Positions 5,463 to 57,542 are shown, counted from the first letter of the stretch. The stretch: DNA of 64,000 nucleotides from a virus (IMGVR_UViG_3300045988_099631:32001-96000), one strand, 5' to 3'. Notes: generated by a model not told the origin, from the letters alone. Translations and numbers: made by a program.

Positions 5463-6582
5463 ATCCTGTGGCCGTGAAATTGAAGTCAACTCTATGTTCT
5501 GCAACTGGTGTGGAGAAAAACAGATAAAGGAACGGAAGAAAAAGGATGAAATAAAAATACCATCTCCAAGAAAGTTGGCAAGTGGGAACTACCGCATTTA
5601 CCTTGATGCAGAGAAGCAGAGTATCACCGAGCCAACAAAAGCGCTCTGCGTAGCAAGAGCAAAAGCGATTCGGGCTGGTTTCATTGAACAAAAGAAGCAC
5701 TCCACTCGACTGACAGTTGGGGACGCCATTGACAAGATGATTGCTGAACGTGGACCTTCACTTTCCCCTTCAACCCGCCGCAACTATATATCGTATAGGA
5801 AAAACCATTTTCTCAACTTTATGAGTCGAGACATCTCTGGCATTTCAAAGAGCGAGTGGCAGATAGCCATTGGTGAAGAATTGGAAGATTGCGCACCTAA
5901 AACCGTTTGTAATGTATGGGCACTTATTACTGCCACAATGAATTATCTGGATGTTGACGTGCCCACTGTGACTCTCCCGGCATTCAAAAAAGGTGGCCTT
6001 CCGACTCTCGATTTTGAGCAGATTTTGGTCTTTGTTAAGGCTATTCGTGGAAAGCCTATTGAACTTGGTGCCCTTTTAGCGTTGCATTCTTTGCGCCGTT
6101 CTGAAATTATGGCTATTACCCATGACGATTTTCATTTTGATATTAAAGGTTCCGAATATATTTCAGTTGCTGGAGCAATCGTTTATGATGAAAACGGGAA
6201 ACTCGTTCGCAAAGACACTAACAAATCTGAGAAATCTACACGCCCTGTTCCAGTCCTCATTCCAAGGCTTCTTGAAATCATTCCGGATAACGATCCAATA
6301 ATTGATTGCTACCCTAATACGCTTACTCGTAGGATCAATAGCGTTTGTGCAGAAAACACTCTGCCACAGGTTGGTGTTCATGGACTGCGTCGTTCTTTCT
6401 GTTCCCTTGCCTACCATCTCGGTTGGAGTGAGGAGCGCACCATGCGTGTCGGCGGCTGGAATGACATTAAAGTCGTTCATGAGTGTTACCTTCAAGAATC
6501 TGCAAAGGACAAGAATGCTGCGACCGACAAGATGCGACGATTTTATCTTGGTAACTTGATTGAAGACGACCCCAATAAATAG
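5452..6582 (+). CDS. int: tyrosine integrase 1 with N-terminal zinc ribbon
   Basis: AGGAGG RBS before MKCKSCGREIEVNSMFCNWCGEKQ. C-terminal catalytic region HSLRRS...HGLRRSF...GGWNDIKVVHECYL. Confidence 0.85.
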   Translation: MKCKSCGREIEVNSMFCNWCGEKQIKERKKKDEIKIPSPRKLASGNYRIYLDAEKQSITEPTKALCVARAKAIRAGFIEQKKHSTRLTVGDAIDKMIAERGPSLSPSTRRNYISYRKNHFLNFMSRDISGISKSEWQIAIGEELEDCAPKTVCNVWALITATMNYLDVDVPTVTLPAFKKGGLPTLDFEQILVFVKAIRGKPIELGALLALHSLRRSEIMAITHDDFHFDIKGSEYISVAGAIVYDENGKLVRKDTNKSEKSTRPVPVLIPRLLEIIPDNDPIIDCYPNTLTRRINSVCAENTLPQVGVHGLRRSFCSLAYHLGWSEERTMRVGGWNDIKVVHECYLQESAKDKNAATDKMRRFYLGNLIEDDPNK

Positions 6583-6601
6583 ATGCACGCAAAAAGCTGG
6601 C

Positions 6602-6852
6602 AAAATCGGCACAGATTTCTGCACGCTAATTTTTTTCTCATATATATATAACGATTTGCTATGTTGGTAGGGGGTTCGAATCCCGACACTCCGACCAAAT
6701 AAGGAAGCTCGTAATCTTCAATGATTACGGGCTTTTCTTTGTGTGCCAACGGTTTGCGGTCTTTTTCCTTGCAAGCAGTTTTTCATTTACTTGCATTGGT
6801 TTTTTAGTTCTGTAAGCGTTTTTTGCCTCAAAATCGGCACGAAAATCGGCAC
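6602..6852 (+). other. attP-like region: core flanked by three AAAATCGGCAC arm-type repeats (6602-6612, 6830-6840, 6842-6852)
   Basis: The same 11-mer lies on both sides of the tRNA-derived core, immediately 3' of int. Confidence 0.55.
6672..6697 (+). other. tRNA 3'-end fragment (T-loop, 3' T-stem, acceptor and ACCA) = att core
   Basis: The sequence is GGGTTCGAATCCCGACACTCCGACCA. The upstream sequence cannot form the rest of a tRNA. A stem-loop with a T-run follows at about 6710-6745. Confidence 0.6.
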
Positions 6853-29969: not shown

Positions 29970-31013
29970 TCACCCATGTACGCACACCATCCCGGCGCAC
30001 GCCTCCCATCAGCCGATGCACACTTGATTCATACCTATGCAATATGTGCCCCATGTCCGTAGGACACCCGATATGTTGCCGTAAGGCAACCGCGCAAATT
30101 TTATTTTTGGGGTATGCCCCATATCCGTTCCAAAATTTTAACTCAGGTTTGGGAAATACCCCCTCCCCCATGTCTATTCAGTCAAAAAGAAAGCGCCGAC
30201 CATAGCCGACGTCGCAAAAGCATATTCAGGCGTATATGGAATCCAGTTTATCCAACCGGTCGCACCATTCCACACTTGCATCATGAATGCGGCGATCATC
30301 CATTCAACCACTACGTCCGTTTTTGGTGTCGTTTCGCGGAACATGGTCAGAGGGGGAAGTGCTTAGTGCGTTCTCCGATTTTGGGTGCGTCCTGGTCTTG
30401 TAAAATGGGGGGTGTTCTTTCATTCTGACGTGATTCTTTCATTTTTGGGCGTATGTCGTTTACATTATGCCCTATAAAGTAAACGACATACCATCATTTT
30501 TGCAAGATTTCCGTCAGAATCATGCAGAAGTCCGAACTTTTTCCGGATTTTTGCATGACACGCCCAGTTTGCTGCGGCTTGCCGTTGGTGTGCAATGGGG
30601 CGCGGTTGGAAATTTTGCCGCTTGTTTCCGCCTGAACAGAGCGGAGCCGGGAACACTTTCCCCGCGCGGCTGTTGTGGTGTGCTGTAAGTAGCTGTTGGC
30701 TGGTGTTCGCTTGGGTTGCGGCGCGTTGCCTTCTAGTTGGCAGGGCTGGGCGGCAGGGGCTGGCGGTGAGTTGAACGTTGGTGCGCGGGTATAAAGAATA
30801 TAGTGTAATACTCGCCCGCGCAATCAACACACGCGCACGCACGCGACGCGCACGCATACGCGCATACGCGCGCGATATAATATGGAGTGACTGCGGGAGT
30901 GTGTGCGGGGCGTGTAGGGGCTGCGCTGGGCTGTTGGGTCGGTGTTGGGGCGGTGTTGGGGCTTGTGGTGGCGCTGGTGGTCGGCTAGGGGCTGCGGGGG
31001 CCTTGGCGGGCGG

Positions 31014-31736
31014 TTAAGCCTGCGCAAGGTAGCGGGCGCGTATCTTATCGATTCGGCGTTGAACGGCGCTTTTGCTCATGCCAAGGGCGGCGGCAATGGT
31101 GCGGACGGTGTGCCCGTCGGCAAGTGCTCGGATGATTGCGCGGTCGGTGCTGTCAGTGGCTGCGGCCTCGATGGCGGCGCGGATAATGGCGGCATCTTCG
31201 GGGCTGCTGCTGACGGGGGCGGCTGTGACGCTTGGCAGGTAGTCGAGCGGTGTTTGTGTGCAGTCGTCGCCGTCCGCGTCGGCGGCGCTGGTGAGTTGGC
31301 AGCAGTTGGACGCGTGCCGGTACTCGGCGCGGCTGATGACGTGCGTTGCCTGGGTGCAGGCTGCAAAGAGTATGTGCGTAAGGGTGTGCGGCTCGTCGCT
31401 TTGCTCGTTGCGCGTGAGGGCAGGCGCGACGCGGGGCCATGCCTCGGCTGCGACGGTCTGCGCGTCGTCCGGGGTGCGTATCCATTCTGTATCGATTCCG
31501 CGTCCGGTGGCCTCGGCGCGGTGCTTGACGGTCCACGCCATGCGGATCAGCGCGGTATACTGTTCCTCGCCGCTCATGTTGTCCCACACGCGGCGGGCTG
31601 CTGTGGCGGCTTTGGCGGTTCTGTGCGCCTCTTTCAGGCAGATGGCAAACTGGGCGCGGCTGCGGGTCTCGGGGTACTCTGCGACGGTGGCGCGGTACAG
31701 GCTCCATGCCTGCCGCATGATCTGGGCTTTACTCAT
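31014..31736 (-). CDS. sigma-70 region-4-like HTH protein (candidate phage sigma or transcription factor)
   Basis: The C-terminus (DRAIIRALADGHTVRTIAAALGMSKSAVQRRIDKIRARYL) resembles sigma region 4.2. RBS AAAGGAG. Lies in the GC-rich island. Confidence 0.45.
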   Translation of the reverse strand: MSKAQIMRQAWSLYRATVAEYPETRSRAQFAICLKEAHRTAKAATAARRVWDNMSGEEQYTALIRMAWTVKHRAEATGRGIDTEWIRTPDDAQTVAAEAWPRVAPALTRNEQSDEPHTLTHILFAACTQATHVISRAEYRHASNCCQLTSAADADGDDCTQTPLDYLPSVTAAPVSSSPEDAAIIRAAIEAAATDSTDRAIIRALADGHTVRTIAAALGMSKSAVQRRIDKIRARYLAQA

Positions 31737-31833
31737 GTTGAAGATCTCCTTTATTCGTTTTACTTGATGGGGCGGGGCCGCTTTGGTGCCGGGTGCGGCT
31801 CTGCTAGGGTGTCCGGGGCGGGGGGCTGTGCCC

Positions 31834-32013
31834 TCAGAAGCTCGGCTGTAGCTTGATCTCCCAACGGCCGCAAATGTCGCCTGCGGCGTTTTTCTCGGCC
31901 TTTTTCAGGGCCTTTTCGATTGCTGCCGCTTTGTTGGGTGCGCTCACGGTAAATGCTTGGTGCTTGCCGCCATTATCCACGCAGCGGAAAGCGAACTTGT
32001 AGTTGCTGCTCAT
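31834..32013 (-). CDS. hypothetical protein (59 aa)
   Basis: Trimmed to MSSNYKFAFRCVDNGG with a GGAGGTGAG RBS. Confidence 0.4.
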   Translation of the reverse strand: MSSNYKFAFRCVDNGGKHQAFTVSAPNKAAAIEKALKKAEKNAAGDICGRWEIKLQPSF

Positions 32014-32240
32014 GCTCTCACCTCCCCGGCAACGGTGAACTCTCCGGCCCATGCGCGGATGATTGATCCGGCCTCGGTCACGGCGGTGATCCAGCCGCTG
32101 ACGTTCGCGGCCTTGCGGCAGCGGATGACCTGCCCGCGTCCGGCGTTGTAGTCGATTCGCAGGCCCTCGGCGGCTGCGGCGCGGATCTCGGCGGGCGTGT
32201 GCCACTGCGGGCGATCCGTGGGACTAATGTTGATCTTCAT
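32010..32240 (-). CDS. hypothetical protein (76 aa)
   Basis: Trimmed to MKINISPTDRPQW with an AAAGGAGCC RBS. Confidence 0.4.
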   Translation of the reverse strand: MKINISPTDRPQWHTPAEIRAAAAEGLRIDYNAGRGQVIRCRKAANVSGWITAVTEAGSIIRAWAGEFTVAGEVRA

Positions 32241-32254
32241 GTTGTAGGCTCCTT

Positions 32255-32485
32255 TCAGTTCTCGGTGAAGTACCGGCGCAAGGTGGAATCTTCCGGGCTT
32301 TCTGAATCCAGCCACGCATTAAACGCGCTGGGGTTGCGCTTTTCGAGTTCGTCCATGATCCAGCCGCGCGTGATCGCGGTTTCCGGTGATGTGCTGAGAA
32401 ATTCCGTTGTTTCCCACGCTTTTAAAAGTTGTTCATTCGTCAGTTTGGCGATGATTGCCGGAGCTGGTGCGGTTTCGTGTTTCAC
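32255..32485 (-). CDS. hypothetical protein (GTG start)
   Basis: Has the same AAAGGAGCCTACA leader as the previous gene. Confidence 0.35.
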   Translation of the reverse strand: MKHETAPAPAIIAKLTNEQLLKAWETTEFLSTSPETAITRGWIMDELEKRNPSAFNAWLDSESPEDSTLRRYFTEN

Positions 32486-32499
32486 GGTGTAGGCTCCTT

Positions 32500-32691
32500 T
32501 CAGGTTGTCCCGGCGGCGTGTGCCGCCATGTAAGCCGCTTCCGCGCGTCTTGCGTCCAGCCATGCGGCCCAGATGGTCGCGGTGTCCTGCCCGATCTTCA
32601 AGCGCACGGCGCAGAATTCCAAGAAGCGATTAAACAGCTCCTTGTCTTTCACCTGCTGGTACAGTTTCAAAAATTCCGTTGTCTGGTTCAT
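32500..32691 (-). CDS. small protein, F-x-RF-x-x-FC...IW-x-x-W family member 1
   Basis: ELFNRFLEFCAVRLKIGQDTATIWAAWL. Confidence 0.5.
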   Translation of the reverse strand: MNQTTEFLKLYQQVKDKELFNRFLEFCAVRLKIGQDTATIWAAWLDARRAEAAYMAAHAAGTT

Positions 32692-32727
32692 GCTCTTTTA
32701 TCTCCCTTCGGTTTGTTCTTGCTTCCC

Positions 32728-33093
32728 TTAGATGATATACATTTTTTGATCAATCGTGATCGTTACGGCTTCCTGCTGCATTTCGGCTTTGATCTGCTGG
32801 GCCAGCGTCAGCACGTCCGGCAGGCGATCCCGGAGCTGTTCGGCGGTGCAGGCGGCGTAAACGATCGTCACGGCCTCGCGGACCAGTCCGGCGTTATCGC
32901 TCACCCAATAGCCAGTGCTTTGCTGGGCGGTTGCGCCGCCGAACCAGCCGCAAAACTCGCGGGCGACGCGTTCAACCTGCGCGGCGTTGTCGGTGGCGTG
33001 GTTGATGTCCTGCGTGCCGGGGACGTAGAGCGCGACGCGCTGCGGGAGCGTGATCTGGGCGGCGTTGCTGATGATGTTGTTGATCTCTTCCAT
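32728..33093 (-). CDS. hypothetical protein, first gene of the minus arm
   Basis: 121-aa ORF. Confidence 0.45.
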   Translation of the reverse strand: MEEINNIISNAAQITLPQRVALYVPGTQDINHATDNAAQVERVAREFCGWFGGATAQQSTGYWVSDNAGLVREAVTIVYAACTAEQLRDRLPDVLTLAQQIKAEMQQEAVTITIDQKMYII

Positions 33094-33160
33094 TGTTGTA
33101 TCCTTTCCGGCCTTCGGCCTATGCCCTGCGGGGCGTTCGTTGTTTCATTTGATGGCTTTA

Positions 33161-33246
33161 TTATATATAGTTATTACATATATTTCAATAGGCATATTGT
33201 CTAAATATTAACTAGATTTTTGTGTAAATTATATAGTTATTACATA
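33161..33246. repeat. two direct copies of TTATATAGTTATTACATA in the AT-rich divergent control region
   Basis: Copies at about 33162-33180 and 33229-33246. TAGATTT recurs three times nearby. Confidence 0.5.
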
Positions 33247-33324
33247 GATTTATGCTGGATAGATATTACCTATATAATGTATAGTTGCGCTATAGATTTT
33301 TTTATGCTATATTACATATAGCGC

Positions 33325-33352
33325 GGGACAAAACGCCGCGCGGCGGTAGATT
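33325..33352 (+). promoter_or_regulatory. class-B promoter 1 (GGGACA-16-TAGATT)
   Basis: GCGGGACAAA...CGGTAGATT, 31 nt before the ATG at 33383. Confidence 0.5.
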
Positions 33353-33382
33353 AAAAAATAGAACGGCATGGAGGGTTTGAAA

Positions 33383-34000
33383 ATGGCGAAAACATCAGCC
33401 GCGCAAATTAAAGCGGCGCAAAAATGGCAAGCGGCAAATGTGGATAGATTATCTTTAGTAGTTCCCAAGGGGCAGCGGGACGAGATCAAAACGGCAGCGG
33501 CGGTGGCTGGTGAATCCGTCAACGCCTATATCATCGCGGCCATTCGGGCGCGGATGGGAAACGCGGACGGCGGCGCGGCTCCTGCGGCCGAGATCGTCCA
33601 GGCGGCGCAGCCGGTAGCAGAGGCGCAGCCGGGGCAGGTGCTCGACGGGGCCGCGCTGGAGTCGGCCAAGGTGGCAGCGGCGGCAGCCGGGGAGGATTTG
33701 CCCGCATTTGTGGCGCGGGCCGTCCGGCAGGCGGCGGACGCGGACGCGCGGGAGCGCCTGCTTGCGGTAGCGTGTAAAAATGCAAGTTTGCCGTCGTCAG
33801 CAGACGCAAGCGCGGCGGCTGAATCTTGCGAGACTTCCGCGTGTGATGTCGTGGACTGGGCCGCACGCACGGACCACCTGCGCGCGCTGCGAGAATCCGC
33901 CCGCGCGTCCGCTGGAATTCCAAGCCCTGAACAGACGGCTCCCGGAAATTCTGGGGACTTACCGCCTGAACAGGCAGGGTCGAAAACTCCGGGAGACTGA
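33383..34000 (+). CDS. ribbon-helix-helix (Arc/CopG-like) DNA-binding protein
   Basis: DRLSLVVPKGQRDEIKTAAAVAGESVNAYIIAAIRARM. Start set at MAKTS, after a GGAGGG RBS. Confidence 0.55.
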   Translation: MAKTSAAQIKAAQKWQAANVDRLSLVVPKGQRDEIKTAAAVAGESVNAYIIAAIRARMGNADGGAAPAAEIVQAAQPVAEAQPGQVLDGAALESAKVAAAAAGEDLPAFVARAVRQAADADARERLLAVACKNASLPSSADASAAAESCETSACDVVDWAARTDHLRALRESARASAGIPSPEQTAPGNSGDLPPEQAGSKTPGD

Positions 34001-50372: not shown

Positions 50373-51461
50373 ATGGGATTTCCAAGCGCCTATGAAAAAT
50401 TCCGGTCAGCAATGATTGCATACGAAGAAAACCTTCGAGCGATAGGCCGTTCTGAAACAACAATTCAAAACGAAGAGTTTGTGTTCAAAATGTTTTCCGA
50501 TTTCATGCTGGAAAACAAATTGTGGGACAGACGCGAAGAAAGCTTCACGGACATTCAAGCATGGCGAGATCAGCTGCGTAGGGATGGCAAGAAACCAACT
50601 ACAATCAGGCAATACCTGACGGTTCTTTCCGCACTCTACAATTTCGCTTCATCTGACGAATTGGGGGAAAACCGATGGTATGACAGAAATCCAGTTTCAA
50701 AACTCCTGATGCCAGACACAAGGAAATTGGAGAAACGCCCGTATGATCAGCTTCTGACCGACGAACAGGTTTTGCTGCTATGGAGGAATAATCCACCGAA
50801 AGGACTCAAGCGTCCATATCTCTGGCCGAGAAACTACGCCATTGTTATTTTGCTTCTGACAACAGAAATCAGAAACAGTGAACTTCTGGTGCTCACGCCG
50901 AACGACTTGGATTGGGAAAACTCGGAGCTGACCGTTGAGCACGGAAAGGGAGACAAGTTCCGCCCAGTTGACTTCCCTATTCTTGCGCAGACAGCCGTTC
51001 GTATGTACTTAAATAGCGGAATCCGGCCTGAGACCGCTGGAAATAGCGGCCCACTTTTCGGGACAGAAGCAACCTTCGAGTTTAAGGGTGACAATAAGGG
51101 TGAGGAATGGCACGCAGGGACTCGGCAATGGCTGTCAGACGTCGTTCGGAGGCATGTAAAGGCTGTCACTGGTGTAGACATGATTCGTTCCCACGATCTG
51201 CGGCATGTCGGAGCAAGGCTCGATCTGAACAGTGGAATGACTTTTGAGGAACTGCAAGCAAAGCTTGGACATGAGTCAGTTTCAACTACGCAGATCTATT
51301 CAGGCAAGCTGACAAGCCGCAAGAACAGACGCATGACCAAGGCGGTACAAGAAGAAAAAGAACGTCAGGCGCAGAGAAATATAGACCGTTTGGAGGCAGC
51401 GGGAGATAATTTTTTCGGAAATCTCCGGTTGAAACAGATTCCCCAGCCGGAGATAGCCTAA
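50373..51461 (+). CDS. tyrosine recombinase / integrase 2 (XerC/D-like)
   Basis: SAM-like N-domain. Catalytic RNSEL...HGKGDKFR...HDLRHVGA...LGHESVSTTQIYSG. Confidence 0.8.
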   Translation: MGFPSAYEKFRSAMIAYEENLRAIGRSETTIQNEEFVFKMFSDFMLENKLWDRREESFTDIQAWRDQLRRDGKKPTTIRQYLTVLSALYNFASSDELGENRWYDRNPVSKLLMPDTRKLEKRPYDQLLTDEQVLLLWRNNPPKGLKRPYLWPRNYAIVILLLTTEIRNSELLVLTPNDLDWENSELTVEHGKGDKFRPVDFPILAQTAVRMYLNSGIRPETAGNSGPLFGTEATFEFKGDNKGEEWHAGTRQWLSDVVRRHVKAVTGVDMIRSHDLRHVGARLDLNSGMTFEELQAKLGHESVSTTQIYSGKLTSRKNRRMTKAVQEEKERQAQRNIDRLEAAGDNFFGNLRLKQIPQPEIA

Positions 51462-51558
51462 ACAAGACCAAGAAAACTACAGATTCCAGCAGTGGGAAGG
51501 TCAGCAAGAAAAACCAAGAAAATTAAAACCATCCGGGTTTCTTTCAAGCCCGGTGCAT

Positions 51559-51625
51559 GGTGGAACAATGGCGCACTGATTGGTTCATAGTCCACTCGGT
51601 ATCGGTTCAAATCCGATTTCCACCA
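51559..51625 (+). pseudogene. aberrant 67-nt tRNA-like element (perfect acceptor and T-arm, CAT in a loop-like context, D-arm region about 6 nt short)
   Basis: GGTGGAA...ATCGG TTCAAAT CCGAT TTCCACC A. I could not fold a canonical D-arm or anticodon stem. Confidence 0.35.
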
Positions 51626-51775
51626 CAATGCCGCAGTTTTTTCGATTTTTCTGCGGCACGGCATATGGCCTCCTTTCTAATGAAGAAAAGCGTCACCCAT
51701 GTAAGCGCAGGCGCTCGCCGGAACATATTAGAGATTCCGGTGCTCCAAGCTGGGAAGCTTGGCTGTGGGAAACAT

Positions 51776-51849
51776 GTGCGTGTAGTTTAATGGCAGAACC
51801 TCAGACTTCCAATCTGATGGTGGGAGTTCGATTCTCCTCACGCACTCCA
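51776..51849 (+). tRNA. tRNA-Gly (anticodon TCC), CCA encoded
   Basis: Hand fold: acceptor GTGCGTG/CACGCAC, anticodon arm TCAGA-CTTCCAA-TCTGA, T-arm GGGAG-TTCGATT-CTCCT. Confidence 0.8.
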
Positions 51850-52215
51850 CATGGGTGTTGCGGCGGGCTCAGGGAAAGTTTTGAATTTCCAAAGGCTTTG
51901 GTGAAACGATATATCCGGCCATCCGCTCAATCTGTAGGTAGTGCAAGTACGACAGATTGCGAATTTAATTAGCTGGCTCCGGCTTAATGTTTGAAAAAAC
52001 GGATGCGACCGATGCACCGGCGCAGGGTTGAAAAGTTCCGTGGTCAATCCCCTCTTGGCTTCCAGACGGTTCGCTGTGAGGCGTGAAAGATGGAAGAAAA
52101 ACTGGTGTGGCGACGCAGACCAACGGCGCAATGCCGCGTCTAGGCGTTGAGTAATGGCGGCTCTGGGACCAAGAGTGGATGACTGTGAAAAATGGGTGGG
52201 AAGTGAGTAAAAACG

Positions 52216-52473
52216 ATGGACGAAAACAATACTGCGTACTGCATCAGGTGCGGTAAGACGACAGATTATTCGATAAAACTTCAGCGCGTGAGAGTGAATG
52301 TTTGTGGGGTGCGTTTCAGCTATATTGAGAATAGACCATGTTGTATAAGTTGCGGAGAAGAAGTCTACGTTCCAAAACTTGAAGACCGAAATTCTGCTGC
52401 TAGGAAGTTTGCGTTCAACCAATCGCTGGAAAAGATCAGAAACAAATTTGATTCAAACGGAGGTAAAACATGA
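52216..52473 (+). CDS. YgiT/MqsA-type zinc-ribbon protein
   Basis: CIRCGKT...VRFSYIENRPCCISCGEEVY. Confidence 0.45.
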   Translation: MDENNTAYCIRCGKTTDYSIKLQRVRVNVCGVRFSYIENRPCCISCGEEVYVPKLEDRNSAARKFAFNQSLEKIRNKFDSNGGKT

Positions 52474-52793
52474 GTCTTGAGATTCGTTACTTAACCAACG
52501 GCACAAAAAACGTCTACGTTGTTGTAGACAGTGCATCGCGCCCGGTTTCTGTCAACTACTACGAAACGCGGGATGAGATTCCGGTTCAGATTCGGCACTA
52601 TGCTCCCGAAGGAAAACCGATGTTCGTCGGTCCTGACGGAGCGCGGCTCTTTTTCGCAATGAAGGTGCTGTATCCAGAGCTGATGTGCGAATACTGCGGA
52701 AAGCCCGGATATTCAGGTGCTGTTTGCATATTTGAATCGTGCGTCGAGCCGTGGAAAACGTGCAAGTACAGGTACACGGGGGCAGGAGCATGA
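52470..52793 (+). CDS. hypothetical protein
   Basis: 107-aa ORF with an ATGA overlap. Confidence 0.45.
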   Translation: MSLEIRYLTNGTKNVYVVVDSASRPVSVNYYETRDEIPVQIRHYAPEGKPMFVGPDGARLFFAMKVLYPELMCEYCGKPGYSGAVCIFESCVEPWKTCKYRYTGAGA

Positions 52794-53113
52794 ACGATAT
52801 CAGGTCGGTTGATTTCAGCGACGCGCAGCTTAAATCGCTCCTGTTTGAGGTGTACAGTGCAGGCTTTGAAGCCGGATATTCCCGATGTACAGACATACGC
52901 ACTGGTTTCAACACATGGTATCATGATGTAATTCAGAAAGACAATCTGCCGATCTACGCGGTACTTGACAGTACCGACAAGGACGTGCGGGATGCAATCG
53001 ATAGCGTCTGCTGTATCAAAACGATCTTGTATTCAGGCCACTATGAACACATCCGGCCGCAGTTTGAATATGCGGTCAAAGTATTAAAAGATTTCATCGC
53101 TGAAAGGTGTTGA
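52790..53113 (+). CDS. hypothetical protein
   Basis: Trimmed to MNDIRSVDFSD (ATGA overlap). Confidence 0.45.
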   Translation: MNDIRSVDFSDAQLKSLLFEVYSAGFEAGYSRCTDIRTGFNTWYHDVIQKDNLPIYAVLDSTDKDVRDAIDSVCCIKTILYSGHYEHIRPQFEYAVKVLKDFIAERC

Positions 53114-53729
53114 GATACCATCTGAGTTTGGCTAGTTCGCACAAGCGTTCCGCTGTGTAGAAAATCGGAACCCATGAAAGTCCTCGTTGCGCTGATACGC
53201 CAAACACAACAGCGCGGGCAAAAATCGTTGGTGAATATCGCGCGTAACACGCAACGTTGACTGCTGTTCAATAATTCGGGAAACAGACAAAGAGCAGGCT
53301 TGGTTAAAGGCTCATGGTGCGGTGACGAAACCAATTCCGCGCAATATAGGGTGGCGGTCATCCTTGGAGGTGCAGCGGGGTCCGAGTCCCCAAACGGTCA
53401 GGTTCGACTCCTGATCGTGCAAGGTGCAAAACCTCCAGCCTATGTGGCAGATGAATTCGAGCGGCCTCGGAGCCTGTCTTGAAAACAGTGCGCGGTGAAA
53501 GCCGTGGGGTTCGGCACCTCCATCTGCCGCCAGTTGCTGGGTCGCTCCCAGCTGATGTGGGCGGTTCCCGTCTCACCCCACAAAGAATGAAAATGCTCGC
53601 TGAAAACTGCACGGTAGGTGGATCGAGGTTCAAAAGAACGTAGAGCCCACAACGTAATGGTTCTGTTGAGGATGCCCGTGATGTGACAATCTAAGCGAGA
53701 AGACGGCCAAAAAGGAAAGGAGAACGCTG
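53114..53729 (+). ncRNA. ORF-free segment of about 615 nt with many local helices and a T-loop hairpin: candidate large structured RNA
   Basis: TGGAGGT...ACCTCCA closes a junction that contains GGGGtccgagtCCCC and TCAGG-TTCGACT-CCTGA. No ORF of 60 aa or more has an RBS here. Confidence 0.3.
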
Positions 53730-53987
53730 GTGTTTGACTACAATCCAAGTAAAAAGAAAGCCGCAGAAGAACTGGACAAATACGACTTCACAAAGCTCCT
53801 GAAACAGTGCTGCAAAATCGGATGGCGCGACCCGCTTTCGATTGGACTAAAGGGAATTGTCGGGAGGTTTCCAGAACTTGAAGACTCGGTGAGGCAGATA
53901 GGCCCAGACGACCTCGTTCACTATCTTATGGCAAAATACCCTGTCTTTTTCAGGCCAAAGGTATCGGTGGAGATGTATTTTCTTTAG
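53730..53987 (+). CDS. hypothetical protein (GTG start)
   Basis: 85-aa ORF with an AAAGGAGAA RBS. Confidence 0.4.
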   Translation: MFDYNPSKKKAAEELDKYDFTKLLKQCCKIGWRDPLSIGLKGIVGRFPELEDSVRQIGPDDLVHYLMAKYPVFFRPKVSVEMYFL

Positions 53988-53997
53988 AATTGTATAC

Positions 53998-54155
53998 GGA
54001 TGCGTGGCCGAGTGGAAAGGCAGCAAGGGTATGCGGTGCAGGAAAGCGCGACACACTCAAACCTATTGGGGTTGAAGAAGCCACCTCGGACGGGAACAAA
54101 GCTCGTCGCATACTGCCTGCACCATGCTGGGTTCAAATCCCAGCCGCATCCACCA
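53998..54155 (+). ncRNA. 158-nt tRNA-like gene: class-II-type D-arm, canonical T-arm, acceptor and CCA, but about 85 extra nt in the middle
   Basis: GGATGCG TG GCCGAGTGGAAAGGC ... GCTGGG TTCAAAT CCCAGC CGCATCC A CCA. The internal helix GGTGCAGG/CCTGCACC encloses the insertion. No standard anticodon arm was found. Confidence 0.4.
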
Positions 54156-54407
54156 TGCCCGCCAACATACGAGGTGGTTACTCGTTAAATCGTAGTTGGA
54201 ATGAAACCTCCGCATCTGGCAGCGGTGTCGTCGGGTTGATATAGCCGATAGCGAAGTTTGGGAGTAAACAAGCGAAATGGGAACTCCCCACTCAGAAGGA
54301 ATCATCAAATCATGCTTTAAGCGGAAATGCCGCTTACTTGACCGGAGCCTGCTCTGGTCAAGGTTTCAGGTTGGTTCGGCGGGACGCCGCTGCATGAGCC
54401 TGCATAC

Positions 54408-54484
54408 AGGGGTATCGCCAAGCGGTCTAAGGCATGGGACTTTGACTCCCATATTCGCAGGTTCAAATCCTGCTACCCCTGCCA
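54408..54484 (+). tRNA. tRNA-Gln (anticodon TTG), CCA encoded
   Basis: Hand fold: acceptor AGGGGTA/TACCCCT, anticodon arm TGGGA-CTTTGAC-TCCCA, T-arm GCAGG-TTCAAAT-CCTGC. Confidence 0.8.
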
Positions 54485-54754
54485 TAGCCGCCCGTTGGGG
54501 TTCTCCGCGCGACTACATTTAACATGGGGAAAAATACGGCTATCCATTCATGCACGCAATAGCGTGATCGTGAAGTGTAGCGGCCCCGGCTAAAGGCGCT
54601 GACCCACAGCGTCCAAGGAGAACGAGGCAAAAATGCAGCTATAGGGGCCAGAAAGCGGGATAGTCGCCACGCTGCAATATATGATGGTGCTATAATAAAT
54701 ATTCTTATCATGTAATTTTAACAATGTATTTGTAGCTTATAATAGGAGGACGGC

Positions 54755-54976
54755 ATGGAGGAACTTACTTTTAAGGTGTGCGATCACTGCCACGGGAAGA
54801 TGTTGCCGCAGACGACGAGCCAAACATTTCGATTTAACGGAAAAGAAATAGAAATTAAAGGTATCCAAGGTTACAGATGTGAAAGCTGCGGAAATGAAGT
54901 CTATGAAGCAAAAGAAATCCGAATGATTGATAAAATCATTCGGGCCATGAATGATAAACCGGCTGTGACATCTTAA
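54755..54976 (+). CDS. YgiT/MqsA-type zinc-ribbon protein
   Basis: CDHCHGKM...FRFNGKEIEIKGIQGYRCESCGNEVY. Confidence 0.5.
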   Translation: MEELTFKVCDHCHGKMLPQTTSQTFRFNGKEIEIKGIQGYRCESCGNEVYEAKEIRMIDKIIRAMNDKPAVTS

Positions 54977-55465
54977 ATCTGGATGAAACAGCAGACTATC
55001 TGCGTGTTAGTAATACGAAGCTGTAGACGATGAACGCCTGGTAATACAGGACGGCTCAGCCGATAATGAATGAGTAAGATAGCGTCTACGGAAATAGGAG
55101 CTGTAGTAAACGGAGTGAAATTAGCAGCCATCATATCCCCCGCGCTTGATGCGTGGGGTGCCGAAACCAATGTGTGCTTCGGCCTAAAAGGTAAAGGTCA
55201 AGCGGATATAGACCTTCGTAGAGACGGCACAAGTCTATTTTGGAACGTCCCGTTCAGCTTGCCGGGAAAGACTCACTAGTGGTCGAACCGGATGAATCCG
55301 CACTTGTTCGTAATGCTTGGGGCGAACCGAAATCCGCCAAGCTAGGCAGCACCTTTGAGGACGCTTTCAGGACTGCTGATAAACAAGCGCCGGTGTGCAA
55401 TCACCTGATTTGCCGTTGGTTTGCGCGCAAAACCTCACGTCCGGTACGTTAAGCCGGTCATAGAT

Positions 55466-55540
55466 GGGCCGTTAGCTCAACGGTAGAGCAAGCCGCTCAT
55501 AACGGCTCGGTCGTAGGTTCGACACCTACACGGCCCACCA
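55466..55540 (+). tRNA. tRNA-Met/Ile2-type (anticodon CAT), CCA encoded
   Basis: Hand fold: acceptor GGGCCGT/ACGGCCC, D-arm GCTC-AACGGTA-GAGC, anticodon arm AGCCG-CTCATAA-CGGCT, T-arm GTAGG-TTCGACA-CCTAC. Confidence 0.85.
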
Positions 55541-55567
55541 TTCATTCTTGAGAAAGGAGGATTACAC

Positions 55568-55843
55568 ATGAACAAGGAAGAACTCGTTCAGGCAGTTTCC
55601 AGCATTACCAATATGCCGAAGAACGCCAGCCTTGAAGCTGTCGATGCTGTTTTTGAAGCGATTGAAGAATCTCTTATTTCGCACGAAGATGTCACTATCG
55701 CAGGCTTCGGTAAGTTTGTTGCGAAGTACCAGAAGGCCAGAGATGCGCGGAATCCGAAGACCGGTGAAAACATCAAGGTTCCAGCCCGTTTTTCGGTCAA
55801 ATTCTCGCCGAGCAGCATTCTGAAAAACGCAGTTGCAAAGTAA
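55568..55843 (+). CDS. HU/IHF-family DNA-binding protein
   Basis: MNKEELVQAV...FGKFVAKYQKARDARNPKTGENIKVPARFSVKFSPS. Confidence 0.85.
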   Translation: MNKEELVQAVSSITNMPKNASLEAVDAVFEAIEESLISHEDVTIAGFGKFVAKYQKARDARNPKTGENIKVPARFSVKFSPSSILKNAVAK

Positions 55844-55899
55844 TTCATGGGGCTTCACAGCCCCTATACATATAAAAAATACAGAAAGGATATACTTCT

Positions 55900-56445
55900 A
55901 TGCAGGATATAAGAATCCATCGGGGCGACATTTTCTGGGTTCGTCAGGACTATGCTGCTGTCGGTTCAGAAACGAGAAAGAATCGCCCAGCAATCATTGT
56001 CAGCAACGATAAGAACAATACATATTCCGAAACTGTAGAAATAGTTTATCTTACAACTGCCGAGAAAAAGCCGATGCCTACACACGTTTCCATTGAAACG
56101 ATGGGCAAGCAATCTACTGCGCTTTGTGAGGCTGTCTACACAGTTGACAAGGAACGTTTGGAAAACTATTTTTGCACGCTGACAGCTGACGAAATGAAAC
56201 TTGTTGACCAGGCTGTTCTTGTCTCCCTAGGGCTTACCGCCACTCCGACCTGCATCGTAGGTGTATCCCAATCGTTGGAATCAGAAAAGGTACGCGTTCC
56301 GCTCAACGAGCCATTCGGATTAGAAGACGCATATCGTGTGATTCAGAAGGAACGCGATACGTTGCTTGCACAGAAAGAAATCTATGAGAAGATCTGCGCC
56401 GCTACGCTGCCGTGTTGGCCGAAGGAGGGTGAGTTGGGCGTATGA
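55900..56445 (+). CDS. MazF/PemK-family toxin domain with about 65-aa C-terminal extension
   Basis: RGDIFWV...GSETRKNRPAIIVSND...PTHVSI...ALCEAVYTVDKERL. No upstream antitoxin-like ORF. Confidence 0.7.
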   Translation: MQDIRIHRGDIFWVRQDYAAVGSETRKNRPAIIVSNDKNNTYSETVEIVYLTTAEKKPMPTHVSIETMGKQSTALCEAVYTVDKERLENYFCTLTADEMKLVDQAVLVSLGLTATPTCIVGVSQSLESEKVRVPLNEPFGLEDAYRVIQKERDTLLAQKEIYEKICAATLPCWPKEGELGV

Positions 56446-57542
56446 TTTATCTCGATCATGCTGCTACTTCGCCCCCACTTCAATGCGCAAAGATCGCCTT
56501 CAATGCAGCATCAACGGCAGCGTGGGGGAATCCAAACTCTTTACATTCTTTTGGGCAAAGTGCCAGAAATGCGTTGGAAGCTTCCCGTGAAGCTGTAGCG
56601 CAGTGCTTAAAGTGCGACTCAGATCAAGTGTTCTTCGTTTCCTCTGCAACAGAAGCTTGCAGGATTGCAATCACGAGAATGACGGAAGCATGTAAAAAAA
56701 TCTATGTAACGAAAATAGAACATGCAGCCGTAACCAGCATAACAGACCGCAAGGTATATAGTGACCGCCGGGATGGTAATCGTGGTTTCGTGCATATTCA
56801 CACCAACAACGAAACCGGTGAAATCTATGATTTGAGAAGTGCCTTTTCAGGGTATGATTTGACGTTCTCCGACTGTACCGCAGCCATGGGGAAGCAAAAA
56901 ATCAACTTCCGTGAAAGCGGAATAGACTTCATTTGCGGAGGTGGTCACAAGTTTGGTGCTCCGATTGGAATCGGCGTGTTGATCGCGCGAAATCCGGAAG
57001 CAATCACAACGAATTTTCATTTTGGAACGCCTTCTGCTCCACTCGCAGCCGCATTTGCAGAAGCGTTAGTGTTCAGGACAGACCATATAGAAGAGTTCAA
57101 AAATGCAGCAGCCACCTTGCATGACCGCCTGATTGATGGTATCATGAACGAAGTACCGGACGCACAGCTTAATGGGCTGCTTTACAAGGGAAATGAAATC
57201 ATGCAATCTCCGTACATTGCAAACGTTTCCTTCCCGAACATCGAGAACCACGCACTTGTCCTGCGTCTTGCGGCTGACGGATTGATGGTTTCATCCGGTG
57301 CGGCGTGTTCTAGCGGAGATAACGCCCCGTCCCGTGTGCTTCTCGCTTCCGGATATTCTGAGGAACGCGCACGTTCGGCCATCCGGTTCAGTTTCGATTA
57401 CAAACTCGACCCGAATGCAAATGATATGGGCTATAACTGCGGGCTGAACCTCGAACGATATATCAAAATCGTTGATGACGCAGTAAAAATCGTGGCACGG
57501 AATGTGCGGGAAATGCGGGAAATCGTATCATGCAGAGGCTAA
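56442..57542 (+). CDS. class-V aminotransferase / cysteine desulfurase (NifS/IscS/DndA-like)
   Basis: IYLDHAATSPP, GGHKFGAPIGIGVL (PLP lysine) and SSGAACSSG (catalytic Cys). ATGA overlap with the MazF-like gene. Confidence 0.8.
   Translation: MIYLDHAATSPPLQCAKIAFNAASTAAWGNPNSLHSFGQSARNALEASREAVAQCLKCDSDQVFFVSSATEACRIAITRMTEACKKIYVTKIEHAAVTSITDRKVYSDRRDGNRGFVHIHTNNETGEIYDLRSAFSGYDLTFSDCTAAMGKQKINFRESGIDFICGGGHKFGAPIGIGVLIARNPEAITTNFHFGTPSAPLAAAFAEALVFRTDHIEEFKNAAATLHDRLIDGIMNEVPDAQLNGLLYKGNEIMQSPYIANVSFPNIENHALVLRLAADGLMVSSGAACSSGDNAPSRVLLASGYSEERARSAIRFSFDYKLDPNANDMGYNCGLNLERYIKIVDDAVKIVARNVREMREIVSCRG

Follow-up and report, generated by a model that had tools for sequence, protein, structure and literature searches.

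What occupies the space between the tRNA genes of a phage when no protein appears to be encoded there? The question is raised by IMGVR_UViG_3300045988_099631:32001-96000, a stretch of viral DNA of 64,000 nucleotides (nt) referred to here as the window; all positions are those of the whole window, and feature coordinates are on the + strand. Five segments of this DNA, S1 (51850-52215), S2 (53114-53729), S3 (54156-54407), S4 (54485-54754), and S5 (54977-55465), together amount to 1993 nt and lie among three canonical + strand tRNA genes: tRNA-Gly(UCC) at 51776-51849, called by ARAGORN and scoring 68.1 bits with the Rfam tRNA model, and tRNA-Gln(UUG) at 54408-54484 and tRNA-Met(CAU) at 55466-55540, both called by ARAGORN and Rfam. 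Small genes with good ribosome-binding sites occupy 52216-53113, 53730-53987, and 54755-54976. A first-pass annotation had proposed that the spacers hold large structured RNAs of the ROOL or GOLLD class. Conserved structured RNAs are indeed interleaved with the tRNA genes, as indicated by covariation in two modules, A and B, and in two tRNA-like elements, TL2 and TL3, but the assignment to ROOL or GOLLD did not survive. Nor did the picture of one or two giant RNAs, which gives way to a mosaic in which tRNAs and tRNA-like elements stand between separable modules of ~100-350 nt. We consider it probable that the spacers are a mosaic of conserved non-coding RNA modules that share their strand with the tRNAs and are freed when the tRNAs are processed.

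Folding of the single sequence could not have led to this result. The spacers had been described as helix-rich, yet minimum free energy z-scores, computed against dinucleotide shuffles, did not exceed chance: they were -0.75 for S1, -0.99 for S2, -0.77 for S4, and -0.81 for S5, while TL2 together with S3 reached -2.65 against -2.17 for a coding control (52470-53113). Since the coding control scores equally well, we treat these values as uninformative and rely on comparison with relatives. A BLAST search against GenBank phages returned only two short, strongly conserved patches, both in the unannotated human-faecal phage MT835520, one at window positions 51961-52044 (82% identity) and the other at 54198-54251 (98% identity). 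Relatives' copies were then collected by exact-pattern scans derived from these MT835520 patches. Among the matches listed, the exact core of module A was present in more than 119 contigs of IMG/VR and in over 120 metagenome contigs, and those metagenome contigs with descriptive record names came from human gut; the same core also occurred in three metagenome-assembled genomes, assigned to Oscillospiraceae, Oscillibacter, and Eubacteriales. The pattern for module B was found in ~85 IMG/VR contigs. The region is a mosaic tRNA island of a temperate gut phage with Oscillospiraceae-type hosts.

Module B and the tRNA 3' end

The core of module B (54156-54291, +) consists of UGCCCGCC, hairpin Pa, GGAAUGAAACC, hairpin Px, the trinucleotide UCG, and hairpins Pb and Pc; the module opens with UGCCCRCC, and its core measures about 95-135 nt. 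The stems of these hairpins (all +) change in sequence among relatives while remaining paired. Pa (54162-54199) was recovered in seven versions: CCUGAUGG/CCGUCAGG, CCAGAUGG/CCAUCUGG, CCAUCGG/CCGAUGG, CCAUUGG/CCAAUGG, CCAAC/GUUGG, CCCAC/GUGGG, and CCGGGG/CCCCGG. Px (54208-54227), whose loop reads AUCUGGCA in the window and follows the invariant pattern N-U-Y-U-G-G-C-A, is closed by CUCCGC/GCGGUG, CUCCAC/GUGGUG, CUCCAU/GUGGAG, or CGCG/CGCG. Similarly, the stem of Pb (54231-54248), which carries the loop GUUGAUAUAG of pattern G-U-N-G-A-(3-4 variable nt)-A-G, alternates among UCGG/CCGA, CCGG/CCGG, GCGG/CCGC, and (A)UGG/CCA(G), and that of Pc (~54258-54291), present in most subtypes, between GGGAGU/ACUCCC and GGGCGU/ACGCCC. 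When 35 distinct sequences were aligned with their register preserved, 94.5% of cells were paired, and the covariation score of 0.400 compares with 0.103 in shuffles (0 of 500 reached it) and at most 0.043 in slid controls. A covariance model of 54 positions (R1) scored the window's copy at 81.4 bits (E 7e-20) and found no second copy of B in the window. Altogether, module B is a well-supported folded RNA that belongs to no catalogued family.

Beyond the core, a tail (54292-54407, +) extends to the 5' end of tRNA-Gln and contains hairpins at 54318-54336 and 54338-54361 as well as a GYGG-GACG-CCRC hairpin. The second of these had been singled out by the first-pass annotation as the complementary pair TTGACCGG...TGGTCAA; it is a hairpin of 10 bp, and one relative subtype carries the paired change CUCGACC/GGUCGAG. 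A further variant of the tail reads GUGG/CCAC, and the tail as such, which is specific to its subtype, was recovered from ~25 relatives. Within the core, the 5'-terminal UGCC (54156-54159) is complementary to GGCA in the Px loop (54218-54221), and a pseudoknot between these two invariant elements is possible. A pairing of UGCCCRCC with the downstream GGCGGG(A/C) was rejected, as the downstream segment forms a covarying hairpin of its own. We also observed a similar motif, GGG(G)YUGAWRWAGYY, at three places, namely, the long arm of TL2 (54069-54082), the core of module A (52024-52039), and the Pb loop (54233-54246); it may represent a shared tertiary-contact or T-loop-like motif.

The most regular property of module B is its position. 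It starts immediately after a CCA in all 58 distinct upstream contexts, and in 48 of these a perfect acceptor-like stem can be drawn between the 7 nt that precede the discriminator base and a segment lying 60-210 nt upstream. The element that supplies this CCA varies, being tRNA-Gly in relatives with a compact island, TL2 in the window, and other minihelix-like RNAs elsewhere.

Given a boundary fixed at CCA whatever lies upstream, module B, and possibly the start of A and S4, could instead be a cis-acting tRNA 3' trailer, either a new ribozyme that cleaves itself at its own 5' end or a structure that directs a host nuclease to the CCA. The distribution of conservation in B is of a kind typical of catalytic cores, with UGCCC, GGAAUGAAACC, UGGCA, UCG, and the G-U-N-G-A...AG loop invariant and the intervening stems covarying, and pairing of UGCC with GGCA of the Px loop would draw the junction into the fold. 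Theta and other ribozymes resembling that of hepatitis delta virus (HDV), as well as hatchet ribozymes, cut at their own 5' end. Self-cleaving theta ribozymes, which are minimal HDV-like ribozymes, are known behind tRNAs of Caudoviricetes phages from the mammalian gut, where their 5' end lies directly at the tRNA 3' end (PMC10879173). Modules A and B likewise abut the 3' ends of tRNAs or tRNA-like elements, and we therefore scanned for HDV-like folds. An approximate descriptor of our own making found 0 matches in 51400-55700 (+), compared with 0-2 per shuffled sequence, and the architecture also differs, since theta ribozymes are minimal nested double pseudoknots whereas in B the helices that covary form three or four hairpins in succession. 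No known ribozyme family in Rfam matches B. An HDV-style P1 (GCCCG/CGGGU) in B is incompatible with the covarying Pb and is disrupted in four related loci (L009, L042, L137, and L180), and a hammerhead was rejected, given that GAAAC-stem-GUC is present but the CUGAUGA core is absent from most variants. We consider a cis role of B in defining the CCA end to be unlikely overall but nonetheless a serious alternative, and such a role might involve self-cleavage.

Module A and the mosaic of the island

Module A is a structured RNA of ~340 nt (51850-52192, +) that starts at the first base past the CCA of tRNA-Gly(UCC), the CCA end being its 5' boundary. Its invariant core is flanked by a variable 5' domain and by a 3' domain that a long helix closes. 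The 5' domain, a conserved block, the core, and the long helix are shared by 18 sequence clusters. In the 5' domain, the covarying hairpin AAUCUGU...ACAGAUU (51929-51958, +) exchanges GC for AU and CG for UA at two positions, pairs 89/118 and 91/116, in 9 of the 26 sequences of alignment A3, and distant A types have CCUG...CAGG as the equivalent hairpin. The conserved block UUAGCUGGCUCCGGCUUAAUG (51969-51989, +) is followed by the 46-nt core AACGGAUGCGACCGAUGCACCGGCGCAGGGUUGAAAAGUUCCGUGG (51998-52043, +), with one hairpin of 7 bp and another of the form YU-GNRA-AG. This core scarcely varies, as 216 of 252 instances carry CTGAAAAGTTCCGTGG (CUGAAAAGUUCCGUGG), and changes are confined to the hairpin-loop positions AYRYA; the variants CUGUAAAG and AUGCAAAG retain the GNRA tetraloop, closed by Y-G and U-A pairs. 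Two closures of the core are possible, a local one through ACGG/CCGU, which gives a three-way junction, and a long-range one in which CCGUGG pairs with an element of the 5' domain. That element reads CAUGG, CACGG, CCACGG, CCGUGG, or CCGCGG depending on type, and all of these fit the CCGUGG pairing. A T-loop-like motif lies upstream of the core at the expected distance in 132 of 180 contexts.

The long helix behaves in the opposite way to the core. Its 5' strand (52044-52066, +) pairs with 52162-52182 (+), after which comes the conserved tail CUGUGAAAAA (52183-52192, +). This helix was recovered in no fewer than 11 versions that are unrelated in sequence, always between GUUCCGUGG and YUGUGWAA, and 48 different 16-mers stand at its start, against a near-invariant core in 252 instances. 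For nearly all of 102 unique sequences, the best partner of the 30 nt past the core ends directly before YUGUGWAA. RNAalifold predicted 93 pairs from 26 alignable relatives, with 98.3% of cells paired. Both sides change in 22 of the 93 pairs; column shuffles gave 8.2+-1.5 such pairs, with none of 500 reaching 22, and slid controls gave 3-11. Helices 8 and 9, at the long helix, account for seven of the pairs with both-side changes. G-U pairs make up 16% of paired cells, and when read on the opposite strand 82% of cells pair instead of 98%; the fold is therefore specific to the + strand and to the RNA level. Like module B, module A is a well-supported folded RNA outside every catalogued family.

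Three elements of the island resemble tRNAs. TL1 (51559-51625, +), a degenerate tRNA(CAU)-like element, lies 98 nt downstream of the integrase gene, shortly before the flagged interval. Its sequence shows an acceptor stem of 7 bp, a T arm, and a terminal CCA; it could be a tRNA gene in decay or, alternatively, the phage's own copy of a tRNA attachment site. TL2 (53998-54155, +) is a 158-nt element with a 7-bp acceptor stem, a D arm, a T arm, and a CCA end that forms the 5' boundary of module B, but with a branched arm of ~95 nt in place of the anticodon arm. Its relatives are 93-99% identical, with the T stem alternating between CUGGG/CCCAG and CGGGG/CCCCG and the D stem between GCC/GGC and GAC/GUC. 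TL3 (53364-53436, +) has an acceptor-like stem around two T-arm-like hairpins and no D arm. The first-pass annotation had noted this stem as TGGAGGT (53364-53370) and ACCTCCA (53430-53436) enclosing a T-loop hairpin (53397-53413), and the observation was sound: compensatory changes in relatives preserve the pairing. TL3 is kept in 25 loci, two of which (L047 and L201) change the acceptor from GGAGGU/ACCUCC to GGAUGU/ACAUCC and have a compensatorily replaced T stem.

None of the three is a canonical tRNA. All fail ARAGORN at default settings, TL2 and TL3 have no Rfam tRNA match, and TL1 reaches 25.1 bits, below the RF00005 gathering threshold of 29. Nevertheless, TL1-TL3 all have an acceptor stem of 7 bp and a T arm capped by a T-loop, and TL1 and TL2 also end in CCA. 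When introns were allowed and thresholds lowered, ARAGORN recovered TL1, and TL2 as a "tRNA with a 75-nt intron"; at this stringency it also made many spurious calls, including permuted tmRNAs, among which only TL1 and TL2 were real conserved elements.

The remaining spacers hold candidate structures. In the S4 module (54485-54700, +), which includes a hairpin at 54595-54613, the invariant GUUCUCC (54500-54506) pairs with GGAGAAC (54617-54623) and closes a replaceable middle: in half of 16 relatives the middle 80 columns hold unrelated sequence, between flanks that remain invariant. Of 45 pairs predicted from these 16 relatives, 7 show both-side changes. The S5 module (55099-55465, +), upstream of tRNA-Met, has hairpins at 55137-55158, 55160-55183, 55418-55434, and 55441-55457; it is strongly conserved in 17 relatives, with 4 of 101 pairs predicted by RNAalifold changing on both sides, and one hairpin covaries, GGUUUGCGCGCAAAACC alternating with GGUCUGUGCACAAGACC. 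A tetraloop hairpin reported near 55.16 kb proved to be misread, as GCTTCGGC is the 3' strand of the hairpin GCCGAAAC...GCUUCGGC at 55160-55183. This same hairpin is longer by ~68 nt in 10 relatives.

S2 (53114-53729, +) is a mosaic spacer, as delimited by BLAST piece boundaries and ARAGORN maps of relatives. An insert of ~1.3 kb at 53326/53327 is present in three relatives (L032, L070, and L129) and absent from the window, and many relatives carry a tRNA-Pro(UGG) at 53527-53532 that the window lacks, at a site where two BLAST pieces overlap by 6 nt. Gains and losses of tRNAs and open reading frame (ORF) cassettes at sharp junctions within conserved non-coding sequence were observed. The order of the larger parts is also flexible. 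Many relatives have the compact layout tRNA(-like) - A - tRNA-Gly - B - tRNA-Met - HU, in which the A - tRNA-Gly - B portion spans ~840 nt and the next tRNA begins within ~20-30 nt of the module's end. In the lineage of the window, ORFs and extra tRNAs have been inserted between A and B, and the distance between the two is 2189 nt here and 293-3857 nt elsewhere. Among copies with at least 4.5 kb of flank, B lies downstream of A in 24 of 57 A copies and A lies upstream of B in 28 of 43 B copies, while five loci (L086, L096, L113, L116, and L128) have the reversed order, with B upstream of A. Since each module occurs without the other, and in either order, A and B are not two halves of one RNA. 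The whole island is covered by about 15-35 close relatives, in which the median identity of S1 is 91.5%, compared with 83.3% for the integrase gene; on this comparison of sequences, conservation in the spacers equals or exceeds that in the flanking genes.

Such an arrangement might be explained at the level of DNA, with the conserved blocks serving as recombination scaffolds or mosaic boundaries, together with decayed tRNA genes, for cassette exchange and without any function as RNA. Insertion and deletion of tRNA-Pro, the 1.3-kb cassette, and the 68-nt block at sharp junctions in conserved sequence would be expected under this explanation, as would the elastic spacing of A and B and cores up to 98% identical between otherwise divergent phages. 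It does not account for compensatory substitutions that keep helices while their sequence changes completely, for frequent G-U pairs in a fold valid on one strand only, or for hairpin extensions of variable length and retained GNRA loops, which are signatures of the RNA level. Scaffold and RNA roles are, moreover, not mutually exclusive. We therefore regard a purely DNA-level function as improbable.

Known RNA families, coding potential, and neighboring genes

We asked whether any part of the island belongs to a described RNA family. All 4227 families of Rfam 15 were searched at the gathering threshold on the whole window and at E<=10 with lax filters on slices of 5.2 kb (51000-56200), 0.39 kb (391 nt; 51840-52230), and 0.9 kb (L001, the MT835520 locus, 5800-6700), and five related loci were searched at E<=1. 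No family besides tRNA matched in the window, the slices, or the related loci. The Infernal search that the first-pass annotation had suggested, with the ROOL, GOLLD, raiA, group I/II intron, and tmRNA models, thus came back empty even at E<=10. ROOL (RF03087) and GOLLD (RF01998) were rejected for lack of a covariance-model match on window, slices, and related loci alike; raiA, OLE, HEARO, and group I/II introns likewise had no Rfam match, and tmRNA had neither an Rfam match nor a default ARAGORN call. HDV-like, hammerhead, hatchet, twister, and pistol ribozymes were without an Rfam match at E<=10. Because no match appears even at that threshold, ROOL, GOLLD, raiA, group I/II introns, tmRNA, and the five ribozyme types just named are excluded as family assignments.

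It is very improbable that the spacers are members of ROOL or GOLLD too diverged for the Rfam models, although the niche is the same. GOLLD is a structured RNA of phages and prophages that lies in or beside tRNA islands, sometimes with a tRNA in its linker, and its function is unknown (PMC12286853). The integrase, HU, and tRNA genes of the window and the viral homologues in IMG/VR place the present modules in the same kind of location, and the compact A - tRNA-Gly - B unit of ~840 nt invites comparison with a GOLLD linker that contains a tRNA. GOLLD, on the other hand, is a single RNA of ~800 nt whose 3' domain is universally conserved and ought to be recognizable, whereas the modules found here are separable and of ~340 nt and 100-250 nt; its known hosts are Lactobacillales and Mycobacterium, along with marine samples, rather than gut Oscillospiraceae. 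Taking A and B as the 5' and 3' domains of one GOLLD-like RNA was rejected despite the compact arrangement, given their separate occurrence and reversed order. ROOL is an ornate RNA that lies close to tRNAs in phage and prophage genomes of Firmicutes from the rumen and gut; few of its nucleotides are invariant, and it is not known to have a partner (PMC5737381). The likeness to ROOL again consists in a phage or prophage location next to tRNA genes. Module A (~340 nt) and module B (~100-250 nt) are smaller than ROOL, their predicted folds have fewer junctions, and module A has a long near-invariant core, which ROOL does not. Neither model matches at E<=10 on slices down to 391 nt or on the five related loci, and the occurrence of A and B apart and in either order also speaks against divergent members of these families.

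The claim that the segments lack credible ORFs was borne out. Mechanical ORFs of 60-194 amino acids (aa) exist in the spacers on both strands, but the longest, a 194-aa ORF on the minus strand over S1, is disrupted in many relatives by indels of lengths not divisible by three, none of 10 ORFs inside the spacers has a Pfam match, and the tRNA-Pro inserted in relatives splits the ORFs of S2, which also receives the 1.3-kb insertion. For these reasons the spacers are confirmed as non-coding. The spacer ORFs are also without the clear Shine-Dalgarno sequence that precedes the real small genes of the island, and that the spacers encode overlooked small proteins is scarcely credible.

Upstream of the island lies the integrase gene (50373-51461), and downstream are genes for HU, a MazF-like toxin, and a class-V aminotransferase. 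The HU gene (55568-55843) directly follows tRNA-Met, and a gene for an HU-family DNA-binding protein also directly follows tRNA-Met in the distantly related phage MT835520 (L001 6723-6998); HU is a conserved neighbor of the tRNA island. In 55900-57542, an ORF for a MazF/PemK-like toxin (181 aa) overlaps that of the class-V, cysteine-desulfurase-like aminotransferase by 4 nt, and it is unusual for such a pair to adjoin a tRNA island. The small gene at 54755-54976 encodes a 73-aa zinc-ribbon protein weakly similar to the N-terminal domain of the antitoxin MqsA (E 1.6e-5, under the Pfam cut-off); it has no DNA homologue among 174 related loci and looks like lineage-specific cargo. Elsewhere in the window, GC content rises to 0.56-0.64 in 30000-34000, compared with ~0.49 in other parts, and GC skew flips sign near 30 kb.

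Proposed release of the modules by tRNA processing

How could modules lodged between tRNAs become RNAs in their own right? We propose that the island is transcribed as a polycistronic precursor, that RNase P would cut the 5' end of each tRNA or tRNA-like element, and that the host 3'-end machinery would cut at the CCA ends. Together, the two cuts would free the modules as discrete, stable RNAs by tRNA punctuation, with TL1-TL3 acting mainly as extra processing handles. A scan of the island for promoters and terminators gave the same counts as in shuffles, and we therefore set no transcription-unit boundaries. In the least certain and most speculative part of this proposal, the freed RNAs would act in trans during infection through their invariant single-stranded cores, which might bind a host or phage factor or assemble with each other, as proposed for GOLLD and ROOL.

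There are precedents for the logic of this scheme. In phage T4, the tRNA cluster includes two stable non-tRNA RNAs of unknown function, "species 1" and "species 2" (rnaC and rnaD), which are co-transcribed with the tRNAs and released by tRNA processing. In mascRNA/MALAT1, in MEN-beta, and in mitochondrial tRNA punctuation, an acceptor/T-arm structure resembling a tRNA, located beside a long non-coding RNA, recruits RNase P or RNase Z, which defines the ends of that RNA. The proposed punctuation of the gut phage island may be likened to both. The T4 RNAs are comparable as non-tRNA RNAs in a phage tRNA cluster, but they measure ~120-140 nt, belong to a phage of Proteobacteria, and have no sequence relationship to A or B. 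The T arm and acceptor of TL2 give a weak mascRNA match (19.4 bits, below the gathering threshold of 42.5); mascRNA-type handles are eukaryotic or organellar, and any analogy with the TL elements would be one of mechanism only.

Several considerations count against a mosaic of processed RNA modules, even though we hold it to be probable. The structure scored for module A was predicted from the same alignment (A3) that was used to score it, which favors structure, and in module B the Pa stem was aligned by hand from its ends inward, with the same effect, while the alignment of Px and Pb followed the sequence. Since a few subtypes account for much of the diversity sampled, independent compensatory events are fewer than the cell counts suggest. 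Because the cores are invariant, the pairings within them (ACGG/CCGU versus the long-range closure in A, and UGCC/GGCA in B) are beyond the reach of covariation. The evidence for S2, S4, and S5 as structures is far weaker than that for A and B, and the folding energies of S1, S2, S4, and S5 as single sequences are no better than those of shuffles. Strong conservation beside mosaic insertion points also fits recombination scaffolds, and the release of discrete RNAs is itself a step that we infer.

The kind of element described here is known, in that structured RNAs of unknown function occur in phage tRNA islands, but A and B are unlike the known classes in sequence and architecture and are good candidates for new non-coding RNAs of this kind in phages. 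A full-text literature search with the core strings returned only unrelated primer sequences and no description of A or B. Their motifs may already be listed, unanalyzed, in a large automated catalogue of candidate viral RNA structures built on IMG/VR (PMC10690425), which comprises 8495 candidate motifs. A more ambitious combination, which we think unlikely in its entirety, is that A and B are two undescribed RNA classes abundant in the human gut, with B a new tRNA 3'-trailer ribozyme or nuclease guide that sets the CCA end of phage tRNAs and tRNA-like RNAs, and A a new ornate RNA of ~340 nt whose invariant, GNRA-bearing core of 46 nt serves to bind a host factor or to assemble RNAs in the manner lately observed for GOLLD and ROOL. 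The island would then be a processing-coupled factory of non-coding RNAs, and more than a supply of tRNAs.

Phage tRNA islands are usually read as codon supply and their spacers ignored. In this island the spacers hold folded RNAs with invariant cores, and these RNAs recur in hundreds of gut viral and metagenomic contigs. Alongside GOLLD and ROOL, with which they share no sequence relationship, modules A and B become the third and fourth examples of structured RNAs associated with phage tRNA islands. The exact junction of B with CCA offers a simple hypothesis on how the 3' ends of phage tRNAs may mature in Firmicutes, and the island as a whole suggests a general design principle, in which tRNA-processing enzymes would be used to excise other RNAs.

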